From: a virus
Length of the DNA: 64,000 nucleotides
Strand: one strand, 5' to 3'
IMG/VR virus record: IMGVR_UViG_3300032287_002972
Span: 32,001-96,000 of that record
The translations under genes and the position numbers were made by a program. Below the pieces are notes generated by a model. The model ran no database searches. It was not told the origin of the DNA and saw only the letters and a program-made list of their open reading frames with translations. Numbering within the stretch: position 1 is the first letter of the stretch; the number at the start of each line of letters is the position of its first letter. Positions 59,007 to 64,000 of this stretch are shown piece by piece.

Positions 59007-59153
59007 AAAAGTCGACTTTTAGGATTTTTTCCGGAAAAATTTCTGTTACGGCATTGTCCCCCCTCTGGACACATATAAAAAACCCTTATATAAGGGGGGG
59101 TACGGGAGGGGGGTATGGATAGGGGGGTATGGGGGGAATGGTCATAGAGGGGG
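59007..59153. other. palindrome and G-tract cluster at the transcription strand switch (candidate terminus, pac site or origin)
   Basis: 14-bp palindromes at 59007, 59026 and 59083; G-runs of 7,3,6,6,6,5 at 59094-59153. Confidence 0.55.
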
Positions 59154-59248
59154 TACACTTTGAATCTAAGATAGGTTTGGGTCATTTGTAAGGGTAAACC
59201 CTACATACGGGGGTACGTTCGTCACAATCAATTTATGTACGTTTTAAA

Positions 59249-59352
59249 GGGGTAAAAATTATTTTAAAAATAAATATAAAAAAGTTTGGATTATACAAAA
59301 CTAAATATTATCTTTGTCAAGTCGTTATGACATTCACCACTAAAGATTTTTT
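59249..59352 (+). repeat. ~104-bp promoter/leader module duplicated at 59828-59931
   Basis: one mismatch (gacattc vs gacgttc). Confidence 0.92.
59285..59316 (+). promoter_or_regulatory. Bacteroidota-type primary-sigma promoter
   Basis: TTTG-N20-TATCTTTG with an upstream A/T tract; related copies precede each downstream cassette. Confidence 0.8.
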
Positions 59353-59357
59353 AACAC

Positions 59358-59612
59358 ATGGAAACAACAATCAATTTTTCTTTCATCGTGACAAGAGACA
59401 CGGTTGAAAATTTCAGAGGTACATTACCTTCAAAATTTTCGACACCACAGGAATTGTGGAAACACATTAAGTACCATTCTGAAAACATTGAATCCTTTGA
59501 GTTAGAAAGGTTCGAATTTGACGTTGACTATAACGGTTGGACAAACAAACTAACCATTGACCAAATTGTCAACGACCCTTTAGAAGATGAGTTTGATATT
59601 GAGTTTGAGTAA
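59358..59612 (+). CDS. cassette gene 1, small acidic protein
   Basis: own promoter and terminator (~59627-59656). Confidence 0.75.
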   Translation: METTINFSFIVTRDTVENFRGTLPSKFSTPQELWKHIKYHSENIESFELERFEFDVDYNGWTNKLTIDQIVNDPLEDEFDIEFE

Positions 59613-59680
59613 CCAAACTAAGAATAACCCTACCAATTAGGTGGGGTTATTTTTTTGTCATGTATGTAAACCCTACCAAT

Positions 59681-59748
59681 TAGGTAGGATTAATAAGTTC
59701 TACTGAATAGGTAGGATTAATATGTTCTACTGAATAGGTAGGATTAAT
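59681..59748 (+). repeat. 27-nt tandem repeat x ~2.5
   Basis: taggtaggattaata(a/t)gttctactgaa at 59681 and 59708, partial at 59735. Confidence 0.9.
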
Positions 59749-59764
59749 TTAGGGGAAAATGAAA

Positions 59765-59812
59765 TTAGTGGGGCAACGACCTCACCATTCCATGGGGTAC
59801 TTGCCCCACTAA
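59765..59812. repeat. inter-cassette hairpin 1 (loop A, inverted)
   Basis: TTAGTGGGGCAA-cgacctcaccattccatggggtac-TTGCCCCACTAA. Confidence 0.95.
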
Positions 59813-59935
59813 ATTTTCCGTGGATACGGGGTAAAAATTATTTTAAAAATAAATATAAAAAAGTTTGGATTATACAAAACTAAATATTATCTTTGTCAAG
59901 TCGTTATGACGTTCACCACTAAAGATTTTTTACTT

Positions 59936-60163
59936 ATGAGTTTATTATTGACCGAGTACCTTACGGTACAAAATGTTCTGAATGAGAAATTTGAGAACCT
60001 ACTCGAAGAGTTCACCACAAACGAATTTGTCACCGAAGTTGGGGACAAAATCTTTGAGGAAACGGGAAAGACGTTTGACGACGAAGAAGTCAAAGAGATG
60101 ATTGGGGAAACGTTGTTTTCTCATCTACTTTTAAATGTATCCTTATTGATTAATAACCAATAA
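59936..60163 (+). CDS. cassette gene 2, small acidic protein (start revised)
   Basis: ATG at the same offset from the duplicated leader as in gene 1. Confidence 0.7.
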   Translation: MSLLLTEYLTVQNVLNEKFENLLEEFTTNEFVTEVGDKIFEETGKTFDDEEVKEMIGETLFSHLLLNVSLLINNQ

Positions 60164-60261
60164 GGATACCTTAAAAATACCCTACTGAATAAGTAGGGTA
60201 TTTTTTTGTCATGTATGTAAATCCTATCAAGTAGGTAGGATTAATTTGGGGGAAAATAAAA

Positions 60262-60309
60262 TTAGTGGGGCAAGTACCCTATGGAATGGTGAGGTCGTTG
60301 CCCCACTAA
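60262..60309. repeat. inter-cassette hairpin 2 (loop A)
   Basis: loop gtaccctatggaatggtgaggtcg. Confidence 0.95.
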
Positions 60310-60428
60310 ATTTTCCGTGGATACAGGGGTAAAAATTATTTTAAAAAAAGTATAAAATAAATTTGTTTATATCAAACTAATTTTGTATTTTTACGTTATA
60401 ATTATTTCACCACTTAAAATTTATTACC

Positions 60429-60722
60429 ATGAATAAGGTAGATTGGGACTTGACAGATAGTCTAAACTCGTTGTTACAATTGGAAAAAATACCTTTTAAT
60501 GAGGTGTTTCCTTTTTGGGATAAAAACATTGATAAGGTAAAAAATACCTTTTATCCTGAAAGAAATACTACTCATATCAACGAACATGAGTGGTATGAGA
60601 ATAGGTTGTTTGTGTGGTATAATAACAATGTACGGTATGTATCAAGATATATATGTACACAAGACCCTGACGACGGTCTTATATGTGATATAGGTGAGGG
60701 TGTAATGTTATATCCCGAATAA
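60429..60722 (+). CDS. cassette gene 3, hypothetical protein
   Basis: own promoter; terminator gaccccgaa-tgaaag-ttcggggtt. Confidence 0.75.
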   Translation: MNKVDWDLTDSLNSLLQLEKIPFNEVFPFWDKNIDKVKNTFYPERNTTHINEHEWYENRLFVWYNNNVRYVSRYICTQDPDDGLICDIGEGVMLYPE

Positions 60723-60772
60723 TCAAAAGACCCCGAATGAAAGTTCGGGGTTCTTTATTGGGAAAATTGGAA

Positions 60773-60820
60773 TTAGTGGGGCAAGTACCCTATGGAATGG
60801 TGAGGTCGTTGCCCCACTAA
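60773..60820. repeat. inter-cassette hairpin 3 (loop A)
   Basis: identical to hairpin 2. Confidence 0.95.
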
Positions 60821-60936
60821 ATTTTCCGTCCACGGTGACGTGAAAAATTATTTTAAAAAAAAAGATAAAATAAATTTGGTTATATCAGAATATAGTTTTA
60901 TCTTTGGGTATTGTTAAAATTAAAAAAAAATCAGTC

Positions 60937-61158
60937 ATGAGAATCAAGGAAAAAATTTCAGAAATCTTAGTTGTATGTTTTTGTTTATTTACCCTTACAG
61001 TAGGGTTGAATATCATTATTGAAAACACATTACCTTTAGGGGTAATTATTTTCAGTTTTATGGTATCAATTTTAACCCTATTACTTAGTGTAGTATTAAT
61101 AGGGTCATGGGTAAAGGAATATAGAGAAGAAAAGAAAAGAAGAAATAGGTCTTTTTAA
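60937..61158 (+). CDS. cassette gene 4, two-TM membrane protein (start revised)
   Basis: the TTG at 60904 lies inside the -7 promoter box; MRIKEK start with two TM helices. Confidence 0.7.
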   Translation: MRIKEKISEILVVCFCLFTLTVGLNIIIENTLPLGVIIFSFMVSILTLLLSVVLIGSWVKEYREEKKRRNRSF

Positions 61159-61259
61159 ACCTAAGACATAGTGGTATGTTTTTGTGTCCCCGACTATTAT
61201 AGTTGGGGATTTTTTTTGTCTGTACTTTTGGTTGACGAGAAGACAATAGTTAAATAAAA

Positions 61260-61307
61260 TTAGTGGGGCAAGTACCCTATGGAATGGTGAGGTCGTTGCC
61301 CCACTAA
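61260..61307. repeat. inter-cassette hairpin 4 (loop A)
   Basis: identical to hairpin 2. Confidence 0.95.
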
Positions 61308-61420
61308 TTTTTCCGTGGACGGTGGTGTAATTTTATTTTTAAAATAATATAAAATAAATTTGGTTATATCAAATATTATTATTAGATTTATACTTTAGTT
61401 AATTACAAAAACAAACAACG

Positions 61421-61741
61421 ATGGAAATTACACAAAAAAAGAAATGGAAACAAACTATTGGAATTAAGGGTTATTATAGACCTATCAATTCCATTGGGGG
61501 TATTAAGTTTACTTACACTGATGAGAAAATTCCCACAAAGAAAATGAGGTCTGAATTAAAGAGATTTAAAAAGATTTTAAGACAACATGAAATTTCTTTT
61601 AGAACGGTTTTCTCTGAAAGTAGTTCACCAAATGTAGGTTACTTTTTTATTGTAGTTAGTCCCGAAAACTTAGAGAAAGGTAGTTACCTTTCTTATCTTT
61701 ATGGTAGAGAGAAAGACGTTCGTTTTTTCTTTAGTTATTAA
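61421..61741 (+). CDS. cassette gene 5, basic hypothetical protein
   Basis: own promoter and terminator. Confidence 0.75.
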   Translation: MEITQKKKWKQTIGIKGYYRPINSIGGIKFTYTDEKIPTKKMRSELKRFKKILRQHEISFRTVFSESSSPNVGYFFIVVSPENLEKGSYLSYLYGREKDVRFFFSY

Positions 61742-61790
61742 TGAAAGACCCCGAATGAAAGTTCGGGGTTCCTTATTGGGTAATACAAAA

Positions 61791-61845
61791 TTAGTGGGGC
61801 AACCGTATGACAGTATGGGGGTAGGTATGACACTTGCCCCACTAA
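61791..61845. repeat. inter-cassette hairpin 5 (loop B, 31 nt)
   Basis: loop ccgtatgacagtatgggggtaggtatgacac. Confidence 0.95.
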
Positions 61846-61958
61846 TTCGAGTTTGTTCAGGAGGTAAAAAAATTTTTTTAAAATAATATAAGATAAATTT
61901 GGTTATATCGGAAAATAGATTTATCTTTGGGTATTGTTAATTTTTAAAACTTATTACC

Positions 61959-62249
61959 ATGATTAAATTTAAAAATATTAAGGAATGTAAAGATTATTTA
62001 CGTTCAAATGGATTAAGAAAAGGAATGTTTTTTGTTGAATCTGAAGGATTCGATTCTTTCTACACACTTGAAAAAACAAAAAATTCAAGAGTTCATTCTC
62101 TTACAGGTGAGATAACGAGGTTTAAAATTAATGTTGATTCTAATAAAATAAGATTAGTTCATTCAAAAAAGAACACGTTTTCTAAATCAGATAAGTTGAG
62201 TATGTTTAAAATACCTTCATTAAAGGAAAAGATACAACAACGTCATTAA
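61959..62249 (+). CDS. cassette gene 6, basic hypothetical protein
   Basis: own promoter and terminator. Confidence 0.75.
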   Translation: MIKFKNIKECKDYLRSNGLRKGMFFVESEGFDSFYTLEKTKNSRVHSLTGEITRFKINVDSNKIRLVHSKKNTFSKSDKLSMFKIPSLKEKIQQRH

Positions 62250-62299
62250 CAAAACAACCCTGAACGAAAGTTCGGGGTTTTCTTTTGGGTAATACAAAA

Positions 62300-62374
62300 T
62301 TAGTGGGGCAACCGTATGACAGTATGGGGATAGGTATGACAATATGGGGATAGGTATGACACTTGCCCCACTAA
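62300..62374. repeat. inter-cassette hairpin 6 (loop B with a 20-nt duplication, 51 nt)
   Basis: (g/a)tatggggataggtatgaca occurs twice. Confidence 0.95.
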
Positions 62375-62486
62375 TTTTTCCGTCCACGGTGACGTGAAAA
62401 ATTATTTTTAAAATAATATATAATTTTTTTGTTTATATTAAAACTTATATTATCTTTGTGAATCATTCACATTAAAACAAATAATA

Positions 62487-63341
62487 ATGAAACAGAAAAC
62501 GGAAACGTATGTAAGGGAAAGGAAAAATTTACCTTTACTTATTGGTATGGGGTTGTTTATTTCTTTTTTATTAGGTTATATATATAGACCTATTGAATTT
62601 GAAAATGAACCTGAACCTGAACCTGAACCTGAACCTTATTATGAATCAAAAATCGTTCCTACGGTTAAGGTGGAAACGGTTTTCGTGGAAAAAAAGAAAG
62701 AATTACCAAAAGGTTTAAAAGAGTTTAAACCTATTGTACCGTCTAACTATGAGATAAGAAATTGGGGTTATGTAAACAGAAAAATGAAAATAGGTGAATT
62801 AAGAGAATTTTTAACATTAAGGGGTTTTAGGAATATTGATAAATTAACTTTACATAAATTAAGACGAGTTTATTTAGGGTATAGGTATCAAGATATGTTA
62901 ATGAAAGTACATGAATTAACAGATTTTCCATTATCAATGTTATATTCTTTCTTTATTATTGAATCAACAAAAAATGGTATTGAAACTGACCTTTGGAGGG
63001 TACATTCTAATTCGGGTGGTATTAAATCTATAAAAGGTTATGGAAGTGTTTCTTTTTTAACGAGAGAAGTAATAAGGGGTAGGAATGTTAGATTAAAACA
63101 AAGGTTCTTTAGTGGTAAAAATACTGATGAGGGAATTGAAGTTTGGAGTAAGGTACTTAATTCGGGTAGATATTATGAATGTAAAAAAGTAAACTACAAA
63201 TTACCCAAACCAAAACTATATGAGAAAATATGTAAATGTATCTACGAAAATGGGTATCATACTGACAGGGACTATAAATTTAGGTCATCATTAATGAAAG
63301 AATTTTGGGAAATTAAACGTGACCATTTTCCAAGAACTTAA
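62487..63341 (+). CDS. cassette gene 7, membrane-anchored GH73/FlgJ-like glucosaminidase
   Basis: N-terminal TM, (EP)n linker, IIES...NSGGIK...GYHTDRDY. Confidence 0.65.
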   Translation: MKQKTETYVRERKNLPLLIGMGLFISFLLGYIYRPIEFENEPEPEPEPEPYYESKIVPTVKVETVFVEKKKELPKGLKEFKPIVPSNYEIRNWGYVNRKMKIGELREFLTLRGFRNIDKLTLHKLRRVYLGYRYQDMLMKVHELTDFPLSMLYSFFIIESTKNGIETDLWRVHSNSGGIKSIKGYGSVSFLTREVIRGRNVRLKQRFFSGKNTDEGIEVWSKVLNSGRYYECKKVNYKLPKPKLYEKICKCIYENGYHTDRDYKFRSSLMKEFWEIKRDHFPRT

Positions 63342-63392
63342 AAAGGAAACCTCGAATGAAAATTCGGGGTTTTTTAATGAATCAAAACGAAA

Positions 63393-63438
63393 TTAGTGGG
63401 GCAAAGGTCGATGGATAGATGGGTCGTTGCCCCACTAA
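63393..63438. repeat. inter-cassette hairpin 7 (loop C, 22 nt)
   Basis: loop aggtcgatggatagatgggtcg. Confidence 0.95.
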
Positions 63439-63558
63439 ATTTTCCGTCCACGGTGACGTGAAAAATTATTTTTAAAATAAAATAAAATAAATTTGTTTAT
63501 ATCAAACTAATTTTGTAGATTTACGTCATAATTGTTTAACCACTTAAATATTATTACC

Positions 63559-63975
63559 GTGAGGAACATTTTAAAAGAAGAATGGGAAAAAGGAAATGTT
63601 GTCCCAACTAAATTTGTGTTTGTCTTTAAAGACAATGAATTAATAACCTTTGGTGTTGACCAAAACGGGGTTAATGAATTAACTCCTACTTTAACACACA
63701 ATTTATTTGAAAATTTATTTGAATGTGGAATGTTATCGTTCTTTGATGATATTTCTGAAATGGTTATCCATGTTTCAATACACTTCGTAAAATACGAAGG
63801 TAAAATAAAATTGTGTATTGAAACCAACCACTACAATGTCATTAATAATGACTACGTTAAAATTGATAGGGAATGTGATTGTGTAATACCGATTAGTGAC
63901 TTCTTTGAAACTGATGATGAAATTTGTGAGTTTAACAAACCAATATTCTCTACGTCATTCTTTTCACTAAACTAA
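63559..63975 (+). CDS. cassette gene 8, hypothetical protein (GTG start by homology with the gene 3 leader)
   Basis: ttattacc-GTG mirrors ttattacc-ATG at 60429; terminator truncated by the window end. Confidence 0.7.
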   Translation: MRNILKEEWEKGNVVPTKFVFVFKDNELITFGVDQNGVNELTPTLTHNLFENLFECGMLSFFDDISEMVIHVSIHFVKYEGKIKLCIETNHYNVINNDYVKIDRECDCVIPISDFFETDDEICEFNKPIFSTSFFSLN

Positions 63976-64000
63976 ATAAAGACCCTCGAATGAAAGTTCG

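Follow-up and report, generated by a model that had tools for sequence, protein, structure and literature searches.

The right-hand end of a 64,000-nt stretch of viral DNA (positions 32001-96000 of the 167,990-bp IMG/VR record IMGVR_UViG_3300032287_002972, which has 27.5% G+C and is ~50% complete; hereafter the window) carries an array of small gene cassettes separated by an inverted repeat with invariant arms. We consider it probable that this array is a hyperplastic early region built of joints resembling the promoter-early stem-loops (PeSLs) of T4-type phages, in which the arms would be paired protein-binding sites upstream of the promoters that double as recombination joints. Alignments with related phages showed that the joints provide dispersed homology where cassettes were deleted, inserted and reordered, with crossovers in the arms, the promoter or the terminator. 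A protein-binding site is the most likely role of the palindrome itself.

Seven perfect copies of TTAGTGGGGCAA-loop-TTGCCCCACTAA, with loops of 22-51 nt, were found in the window, starting at 59765, 60262, 60773, 61260, 61791, 62300 and 63393. Six of them matched the pattern TTAGTGGGGCAA-N15..45-TTGCCCCACTAA, and the seventh, with its 51-nt loop, was recovered via its arms. Shuffled sequence gave no hairpin match at all, and arm matches in the shuffles averaged 3.0 and never reached 15. A first-pass annotation, made from the letters of the window, had described these copies, their invariant arms and varying loops, their place between terminator and promoter, and an array running off the right edge. 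Each of these points was confirmed, though three of the seven loops are identical: the hairpin lies between terminator and promoter in every window gap, and the next copy starts at record position 96027, 27 nt beyond the edge. The genome-wide count proposed at that stage revealed 21 perfect copies in the record, or 24 if up to one mismatch per arm is allowed, all of them at record positions 91765-114146 in a single early block; none was found elsewhere in the 167,990 bp.

The order of elements is the same in each window gap: ORF (open reading frame), GC-rich stem with T run, palindrome, spacer, A/T tract, TTTG...TAnnTTTG, short leader and ATG. A canonical terminator with a long T run stands directly upstream of every window hairpin. 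The complete joint would accordingly be read as an intrinsic terminator, a 12-16-bp inverted repeat with variable loop, a spacer of ~20 nt, a G-rich box, an A/T tract of ~30 nt and a promoter with -33 TTTG and -7 TAnnTTTG. With one exception among all copies, the right arm ends 50-63 nt upstream of the -33 TTTG. Among the ~30 joints of the record block with both terminator and promoter, the palindrome is present in 25 and missing from 5, and it never occurs without a neighbouring terminator and promoter. The features of window positions 59040-64000 are as follows.

59040-59250, no strand: array head, divergent non-coding region between the minus-strand block and the first plus-strand cassette
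59254-59651, plus strand: cassette 1, A/T tract, promoter 59285-59316, ORF 59358-59612 (84 aa), terminator 59623-59651
59765-59812, no strand: inverted repeat 1, 24-nt loop, fold -18.1 kcal/mol, z -5.6
59833-60203, plus strand: cassette 2, promoter 59864-59895, ORF 59906-60163 (85 aa), terminator 60175-60203
60262-60309, no strand: inverted repeat 2, 24-nt loop, fold z -5.6
60330-60751, plus strand: cassette 3, promoter 60362-60393, ORF 60429-60722 (97 aa), terminator 60730-60751
60773-60820, no strand: inverted repeat 3, loop identical to that of copy 2
60843-61209, plus strand: cassette 4, promoter 60875-60906, ORF 60937-61158 (73 aa, hydrophobic), terminator 61187-61209
61260-61307, no strand: inverted repeat 4, loop identical to that of copy 2
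61327-61769, plus strand: cassette 5, promoter 61359-61390, ORF 61421-61741 (106 aa), terminator 61748-61769
61791-61845, no strand: inverted repeat 5, 31-nt loop with two GTATGACA motifs 20 nt apart
61866-62279, plus strand: cassette 6, promoter 61898-61929, ORF 61959-62249 (96 aa), terminator 62256-62279
62300-62374, no strand: inverted repeat 6, 51-nt loop equal to the loop of copy 5 plus one 20-nt unit (three GTATGACA)
62396-63371, plus strand: cassette 7, promoter 62428-62458, ORF 62487-63341 (284 aa), terminator 63348-63371
63393-63438, no strand: inverted repeat 7, 22-nt loop
63460-64000, plus strand: cassette 8, promoter 63492-63523, ORF 63559-63975 (138 aa, GTG start)
From near 63981, plus strand: terminator of cassette 8, cut off by the window edge

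All copies of the hairpin lie in one plus-strand block (record 91358-122497) of ~57 small genes. The window promoters are of the Bacteroidota type, TTTG-N19/20-TAnnTTTG; the strict form of this pattern has 45 matches in the record, 30 of them on the plus strand of the early block, and an E. coli-type sigma-70 scan revealed no enrichment. About 40 promoters agree in having a spacer of exactly 20 nt, a -33 region of the form TTTGGTTATAT and an A/T tract of ~30 nt. Terminator-like sites numbered 11, compared with 3.5 expected. The major head protein matches gp23 of T4 (E 1.5e-24), the portal protein and the large terminase match the corresponding PHROGs, and portals 77-89% identical are encoded on hundreds of IMG/VR contigs of up to 288 kb. 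Megablast of the region against the INPHARED phages gave no match, and an Rfam search returned weak chance matches only. Judged by these genes and promoters, the phage is T4-like and would use a Bacteroidota-type host RNA polymerase, with ~40 small early genes apparently served by the repeated joints.

The proteins of the array are ORFans except for DUF932, GP88-like and DUF3293 proteins and one C5 methyltransferase farther along, and none of the eight cassette proteins of the window had a significant match in Pfam or PHROG. The cassette 7 protein has an N-terminal membrane anchor and weak endolysin-like PHROG matches. Eight one-gene cassettes were present as annotated, and their description as unrelated has to be given up for cassettes 1 and 2, since these are 99% identical over 105 nt comprising the promoter and the 5' coding sequence. 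Diverged paralogues exist in the array for the genes of cassette 6 (at L098:6632-6841, record position 96632) and cassette 8 (at record ~100497), and L098:6197-6496 and L098:11478-11810 form a further pair; cassettes were therefore duplicated as well as shuffled.

The two ends of the array are non-coding. Its head carries six G5-G7 runs on the plus strand together with GGGGTA/GGGGTAC and GGGGTATGG repeats, and the block TTCCGGAAAAATTTCTGTTA...GTCCCCCCT within it is conserved in the relative L105; the contig of another relative, G001, whose whole record was examined, stops inside this region. At the distal end, where the plus-strand block meets minus-strand genes, lies a 280-nt stretch (L099:11996-12275, record 121996-122275) that is rich in (AT)n at its core and contains several long palindromes. 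In the gap that separates the cassette 1 terminator from the first palindrome, window positions 59667-59751 hold three tandem 27-nt units that each include a small hairpin (CCTAC...GTAGG), and one further unit of this type was observed at 60218. At record 110578-110667 (L099:578-667), a left arm without its partner precedes a perfect palindrome of 33 nt (GTTGTAACAAAT...ATTTGTTACAAC), after which comes a normal hairpin.

Arm conservation and the joint motif across lineages

A search of IMG/VR with the exact hairpin pattern gave no match outside the record of the phage itself, and a metagenome scan identified the exact hairpin on four related contigs of one sample, L114, L118, L122 and L124. These are 70-86% identical to the array and share its arms and joint architecture. 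Comparison of the 40 hairpins of this phage and the four contigs revealed 32 perfect stems and eight with one mismatch, none of which was compensated (0/8). Every arm position is at least 93% conserved; conservation is much lower in the spacer beside the arms and at several positions of the promoter. The palindrome continues weakly to GAAW / WTTC, and the stem is perfect over 12-16 bp without bulges. As the arms are nearly free of substitutions in 40 copies and show no compensated change, a sequence-specific recognition is implied.

The DUF932 protein (71% identical) led to loci of sister lineages. In the L105 lineage the left arm reads TTG[ATG]TTGGC[GA] and the right arm [CT]GCCAA[CA]CAA; complementarity between them is imperfect, one position differing in every case. 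Many joints of this lineage have the left motif alone, directly 5' of the A/T tract, and some read arm-loop-arm-spacer-arm. Further lineages, collected via the GP88-like protein, each have a recurring joint motif of their own:

L134: TGTTTTGGCAGT, six perfect inverted repeats
L108: TAGTTTGGCAA, 14 forward and 1 reverse
L129-L131: AATGTTTGGCY / GCCAATCATT
L133: TGCCAAAGAAT, 12 to 1
L132: ATCCCAGTAA, unrelated to the motifs of the other lineages
L128: ATCCGGTCAAC, unrelated to the motifs of the other lineages

The core KKGGCA is common to the arms of this phage and most of these versions. Where the motif is solitary, its end lies 6-8, 17-18, 28-29 or 39-40 nt from the -33 TTTG, which corresponds to a ladder of helical turns. 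In this phage, a G[GT][GT]TAAA box occupies the same ladder at 17, 27-30 and 38-39 nt from -33; we regard it as the counterpart by position of TTGGCAAA, with its C replaced by T. An extended promoter word searched for in the relatives was not enriched. By this comparison the arms appear to be the lineage-specific form of a family-wide intergenic motif with the core KKGGCA, a feature which PeSLs lack.

Operator-like features were thus found both in the conservation of sequence rather than pairing and in the single motifs at phased positions in sister lineages. A binding site at the DNA level is favoured mainly because helical phasing typifies a promoter-linked protein site. In the proposed mechanism, the arms would be two inverted copies of a promoter-upstream cis-element that sister lineages carry singly, one to four helical turns above -33. 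Most probably they would be recognised in double-stranded form by a protein with sequence specificity; candidates are a transcription factor of phage or host origin and a boundary or roadblock protein, and this putative protein would co-regulate or insulate the early promoters. Two other candidate roles were discarded: a chi-like protective site, because the motif is absent outside the early block, and a sigma-54 promoter, because the spacing is unsuitable.

In the window, loops 2-4 are identical and loop 1 is their reverse complement with one mismatch. Across the array, the loops fall into a GGAATGGTTAGGTCG-like family, a CGTATGACA-containing family with 1-3 units of 20 nt, and mosaics of both, and they occur in both orientations. 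All 21 GTATGACA of the record lie within the array, and GTATGACA or its variant GTATTACA also adjoins the arm in lineages with different arms. This motif resembles the leader end and start codon of cassette genes (AAACGTATTACA-ATG; GT-ATG-ACA), and for that reason the loops may be remnants of cassette starts. Loops of the ACAAAACGTATGACA type have the appearance of a cassette leader with its start codon, and CGT-ATGACA-TTGCCCCACTAAA, a loop end with its right arm at record 102548-102586, resembles the 5' end GTT-ATGACATTCACCACTAAAG of the first two genes (window 59322-59352); the palindrome may derive from gene starts, or these from the palindrome. A conserved mini-ORF in the loops was rejected, as the frame differs between loop types. 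Loops at corresponding positions of this phage and L122 often differ while the same families recur, which fits frequent exchange within the arms.

Cassette exchange among related phages

The first-pass annotation had proposed a comparison of cassette order and content among relatives. In the four contigs with the same arms both proved to differ, and several of the junctions map to hairpin arms. In L124, the homologue of the window gene at 60937 is joined directly to that of 62487, so that two cassettes are skipped. A three-way alignment placed this junction in the left arm, with a terminator side that fits one joint and a loop and promoter side that fit another. In L122, the cassette of window gene 61421 stands between two genes that are located 3.5 kb downstream in this phage, and three others are missing. 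L118 has two units swapped, three genes missing and two novel genes; on each side, the border of the novel two-gene unit lies ~20 nt 3' of a right arm. In L114, the distal array is present in compressed form. Further junctions in these contigs were mapped to a right arm, a left arm, the inside of a promoter and the inside of a terminator common to two joints. At L122:3922-4415, between two hairpins, lies a gene of opposite orientation whose product has a lipoprotein-like signal sequence (MKNLILLFSIFLFSC...); it may be an inverted or a foreign cassette.

Shuffling was also found in the sister lineages, though their motif is mostly single-copy and forms no hairpin. L105 and L100-L102, which are 90-94% identical, differ by four single-gene insertions or deletions, and the crossovers were placed in two promoters that are nearly identical, in the ~14 nt surrounding the motif and in shared stretches of 56 nt and 72 nt. 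Exchange anywhere within a shared joint, as these alignments suggest, is the pattern shown by PeSLs. The arms would be favoured as crossover points because they are the longest perfectly conserved stretch of the joint, and the exchange itself would be carried out by the general recombination machinery of the phage, as proposed for PeSLs.

Nine other contigs carrying the same 12-mer (L115-L117, L119-L121, L123, L125 and L126; GC 39-70%) were rejected as relatives, as they have no protein in common with the phage and contain unrelated palindromic repeats. L115, L116, L119 and L121 (~40% G+C) consist of non-coding-looking DNA densely filled with TTGCGCATCTGGCGCAC-type repeats and with the 20-mer TTAGTGGGGCAAGTGTGTAA, which occurs in both orientations. 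L117, L120, L123 and L126 (52-70% G+C) carry a palindromic element whose 26-nt arms start with the 12-mer of the phage; L126 is a Fimbriiglobus metagenome-assembled genome, and the 12-mer match in these four is probably due to chance or to an element of Planctomycetota resembling repetitive extragenic palindromes (REPs).

GpC depletion and competing explanations

From window position 59051 onward (record 91051-101159), a zone of 10,108 bp contains the dinucleotide GpC only in the arms, with 32 GpC in 16 hairpins, while the next longest stretch of the record without GpC outside an arm is 1.2 kb. The proteins of this zone have almost no alanine. As the arms alone keep GpC there, they are under strong selection. 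Genome-wide, the observed/expected ratio of GpC stands at 0.45, and depletion is strongest in the contexts AGCT and GCGC. In the related contigs with the same arms, the homologous genes are nearly free of GpC and some GpC occurs in spacers. The ratio is 0.36-0.54 in every lineage with a GGCA-type joint motif. GpC is not depleted in L128 and L132 (0.89-1.01), whose motifs lack it, nor in the more distant L135 and L139, which have no recurring joint motif; the range over all four is 0.89-1.15. The link between GpC depletion and the GGCA motif may be functional or a matter of joint inheritance. In L132 and L128, palindromic 4-mers are avoided instead (GATC, GGCC, CCGG, CTAG; CATG). The array also encodes a compact C5 cytosine methyltransferase of 296 aa (record 109574-110464, L098:19574 to L099:464), with an orthologue in a relative at L114:177-1070. 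Its best relatives of solved structure, matched over the full length, are the catalytic domains of DNMT3A/3B (E 5e-26), ahead of M.HaeIII and M.HhaI.

These observations raise the question whether the arms are marks for a GpC-directed activity, either methylation by the DNMT3-like methyltransferase or a nicking or cutting enzyme, with other GpC purged from the early zone. The length of the GpC-free zone, the way in which depletion tracks the GGCA motifs across lineages, the presence of the methyltransferase gene in the array and the replacement of the promoter-proximal box GGCAAA of relatives by GGTAAA in this phage all point in this direction. We nevertheless regard it as improbable: the methyltransferase need not be specific for GpC, the avoidance could reflect host restriction given the most depleted contexts, the correlation across lineages may rest on one or two independent events, and relatives with the same arms retain GpC in spacers. 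A broader form, in which a lineage-specific GpC-dependent enzyme or binding protein would define the cassette borders by a methyl mark, a nick or an exchange point and other GpC was purged from the first 10 kb of early genes, is to be considered unlikely as well, if a little less so. The hairpin might instead be a purely structural element, a second and possibly bidirectional terminator or insulator acting as RNA or DNA, with arm identity maintained by concerted evolution. As single-stranded DNA the window hairpins form stable folds (-15 to -18 kcal/mol, z -3.3 to -5.6) and the palindrome is lengthened by A-rich and T-rich flanks; moreover, PeSL stem-loops are proven terminators and recombination among the joints is clearly frequent. 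A role in termination, however, seems redundant because a strong terminator always precedes the hairpin and its T tail is short (3-5 T), loops of 15-51 nt also being poor for intrinsic termination. The uncompensated arm mismatches, the systematically mismatched arms and many single-armed joints of the L105 lineage, and the failure of the adjacent spacer and promoter sequences to become homogenised likewise make a purely structural role unlikely.

The proposal of the first-pass annotation, a capture and shuffling system with the hairpin as recombination site, stands as far as the early-gene cassette region and its reordering are concerned; the dedicated capture system is unsupported because no recombinase was found, junctions also fall in promoters and terminators, and sister lineages shuffle with a mostly single motif and no hairpin. 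Such a system, in which a recombinase or HUH endonuclease would act on the folded hairpin to capture, excise and invert cassettes in the style of attC or of REPs and their associated tyrosine transposases (RAYTs), would account for invariant arms around variable loops in both orientations, for the recurrence of the same loop families at differing positions among relatives and for at least three junctions mapping to an arm. It would also explain the equal offset of both borders of the novel L118 unit, and the constant arm difference of the L105 lineage could be a conserved stem mismatch. The absence of a recombinase from the window had been noted before, and a search widened to the record and to relatives found neither a tyrosine or serine recombinase nor an HUH enzyme: Phage_integrase (PF00589), Resolvase, Y1_Tnp (PF01797), GIY-YIG and HNH_3 are missing from the ~50% complete record, and PF00589 is missing from four relatives, one of them 92% complete. 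The single Y1_Tnp match of the latter (15 bits, sub-threshold) was dismissed, as it lies in an 81-aa ORF without full HUH/Tyr architecture. Together with single, mostly one-orientation motifs in shuffling sister lineages, a perfect stem without extrahelical bases and a promoter in each cassette, unlike attC cassettes, this renders a dedicated site-specific system distinctly unlikely. A selfish miniature palindromic element, resembling miniature inverted-repeat transposable elements or REP doublets (REPINs), that spread into terminator-promoter gaps without function for the phage is very improbable. Short terminal inverted repeats with a variable interior, copies in both orientations, the joints that lack the palindrome and the arm-loop-arm-spacer-arm joints of the L105 lineage, which look as if an insertion had duplicated the motif, would agree with it. 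On the other hand, no transposase was found, inspection by eye led us to reject transposon-like target-site duplications at the loop ends, none of which was consistent, the element occurs in a single 22-kb region and always at the same position in the joint, and the retention of arms in a zone otherwise purged of GpC argues for selection.

Several points weigh against protein-bound, recombining joints, the reading which we prefer. No candidate arm-binding protein emerged, the arm-to-arm spacing of 15-51 nt is a poor fit to a rigid dimeric regulator, and the 53-66-nt gap between right arm and -33 shows no clear helical phase. Gene conversion, if frequent among the joints, could keep the arms identical without protein recognition, and crossovers can be placed only within identity, so that their mapping to arms is partly a consequence of arm conservation. 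A protein site leaves unexplained why the arms are the sole GpC sites in 10 kb. Finally, with the record half complete, a recombinase or nuclease could sit in the missing half; a weak RecA/UvsX-like ORF is present in the 92%-complete relative and none was found in the incomplete record of this phage.

Comparison with known systems

PeSLs were described in the T4-type phages RB49/phi1, T4/PST and KVP40/nt-1 (Arbiol et al. 2010, PMC2839356; Comeau et al. 2014, PMC4122927). Their stem-loops terminate transcription, the promoters are strong and mini-circles form during infection; no recombinase was found and general homologous recombination was proposed (PMC2839356). The annotation had named PeSLs as a precedent, and composite joints, insertions and deletions bounded by joints and the lack of a recombinase bear this out. 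Both systems comprise dense small ORFan early genes in a T4-like phage, in each joint a stem-loop terminator occurs together with an A/T-rich tract and an early promoter of the host type, and insertions, deletions or replacements in relatives are bounded by the joints without a dedicated recombinase. In contrast to the sigma-70 -35/-10 promoters of PeSLs, the promoters described here follow the -33/-7 pattern of Bacteroidota. In PeSLs, neither the sequence of the stem-loop nor its place with respect to the promoter is constant (PMC2839356), whereas here the terminator is a separate variable hairpin and an extra inverted repeat with sequence-invariant arms occupies a fixed place upstream of the A/T tract, its arms being the version, peculiar to this lineage, of a motif also found in single copies.

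The other two precedents, integron attC sites and REP/RAYT elements, did not hold, as neither IntI nor RAYT was found and the architecture differs. Integrons share with the array one-gene units separated by palindromic, imperfectly conserved sites with variable centres, and an order and content that vary between relatives. The repeat described here is, however, a perfect one of 12-16 bp without R''-L''/L'-R' boxes or extrahelical bases, each cassette has its own promoter and terminator while attC cassettes are promoterless, and the junctions are not confined to the palindrome. REPs and REPINs likewise consist of two inverted conserved short copies around a variable spacer, extragenic and downstream of terminators, but they are dispersed rather than limited to one 22-kb early region, and a single arm of the present repeat is not itself palindromic; no gene for the Y1 HUH enzyme RAYT was found here.

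With respect to a binding site, the stoperators of cluster A mycobacteriophages, mentioned in PMC12266134, offer a comparison. Stoperators are 13-bp repressor sites dispersed in short intergenic gaps. Both cases show an invariant motif of 12-13 bp in ~25-30 intergenic gaps of one phage and presumably one reader protein. Stoperators (L5 gp71) are single, asymmetric, oriented with transcription and distributed genome-wide in a temperate phage, whereas the arms are paired and inverted, limited to the early region of a T4-like, lytic-type phage, and their binder is putative. Upstream activator sites of the class I type and UP-elements resemble the single motif of sister lineages in its position 7, 18, 29 or 40 nt above -33; in this phage, by contrast, the intact copies lie farther upstream as an inverted pair with variable spacing.

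On these comparisons the array appears to be a modular early region of the PeSL type and not integron-like or REP/RAYT-like. New here are the arms as a form of a family-wide motif, their near-invariance without compensated change and their status as the only GpC sites in a 10.1-kb zone. If a GpC-dependent reading of the cassette borders were true, it would constitute a new cassette system, recombinase-independent or with a cryptic enzyme, in T4-like phages of Bacteroidota. As it stands, the finding extends the PeSL principle, portable joints for swapping early host-takeover genes, to a large and widespread uncultured group of freshwater phages with Bacteroidota-type promoters, and it adds to PeSLs a sequence-invariant, lineage-specific motif that seems to behave like a protein-binding site. 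Identification of the factor that reads the arms would give a handle on early-gene control in Bacteroidota phages, about which almost nothing is known, and would show whether cassette exchange is purely homology-driven.

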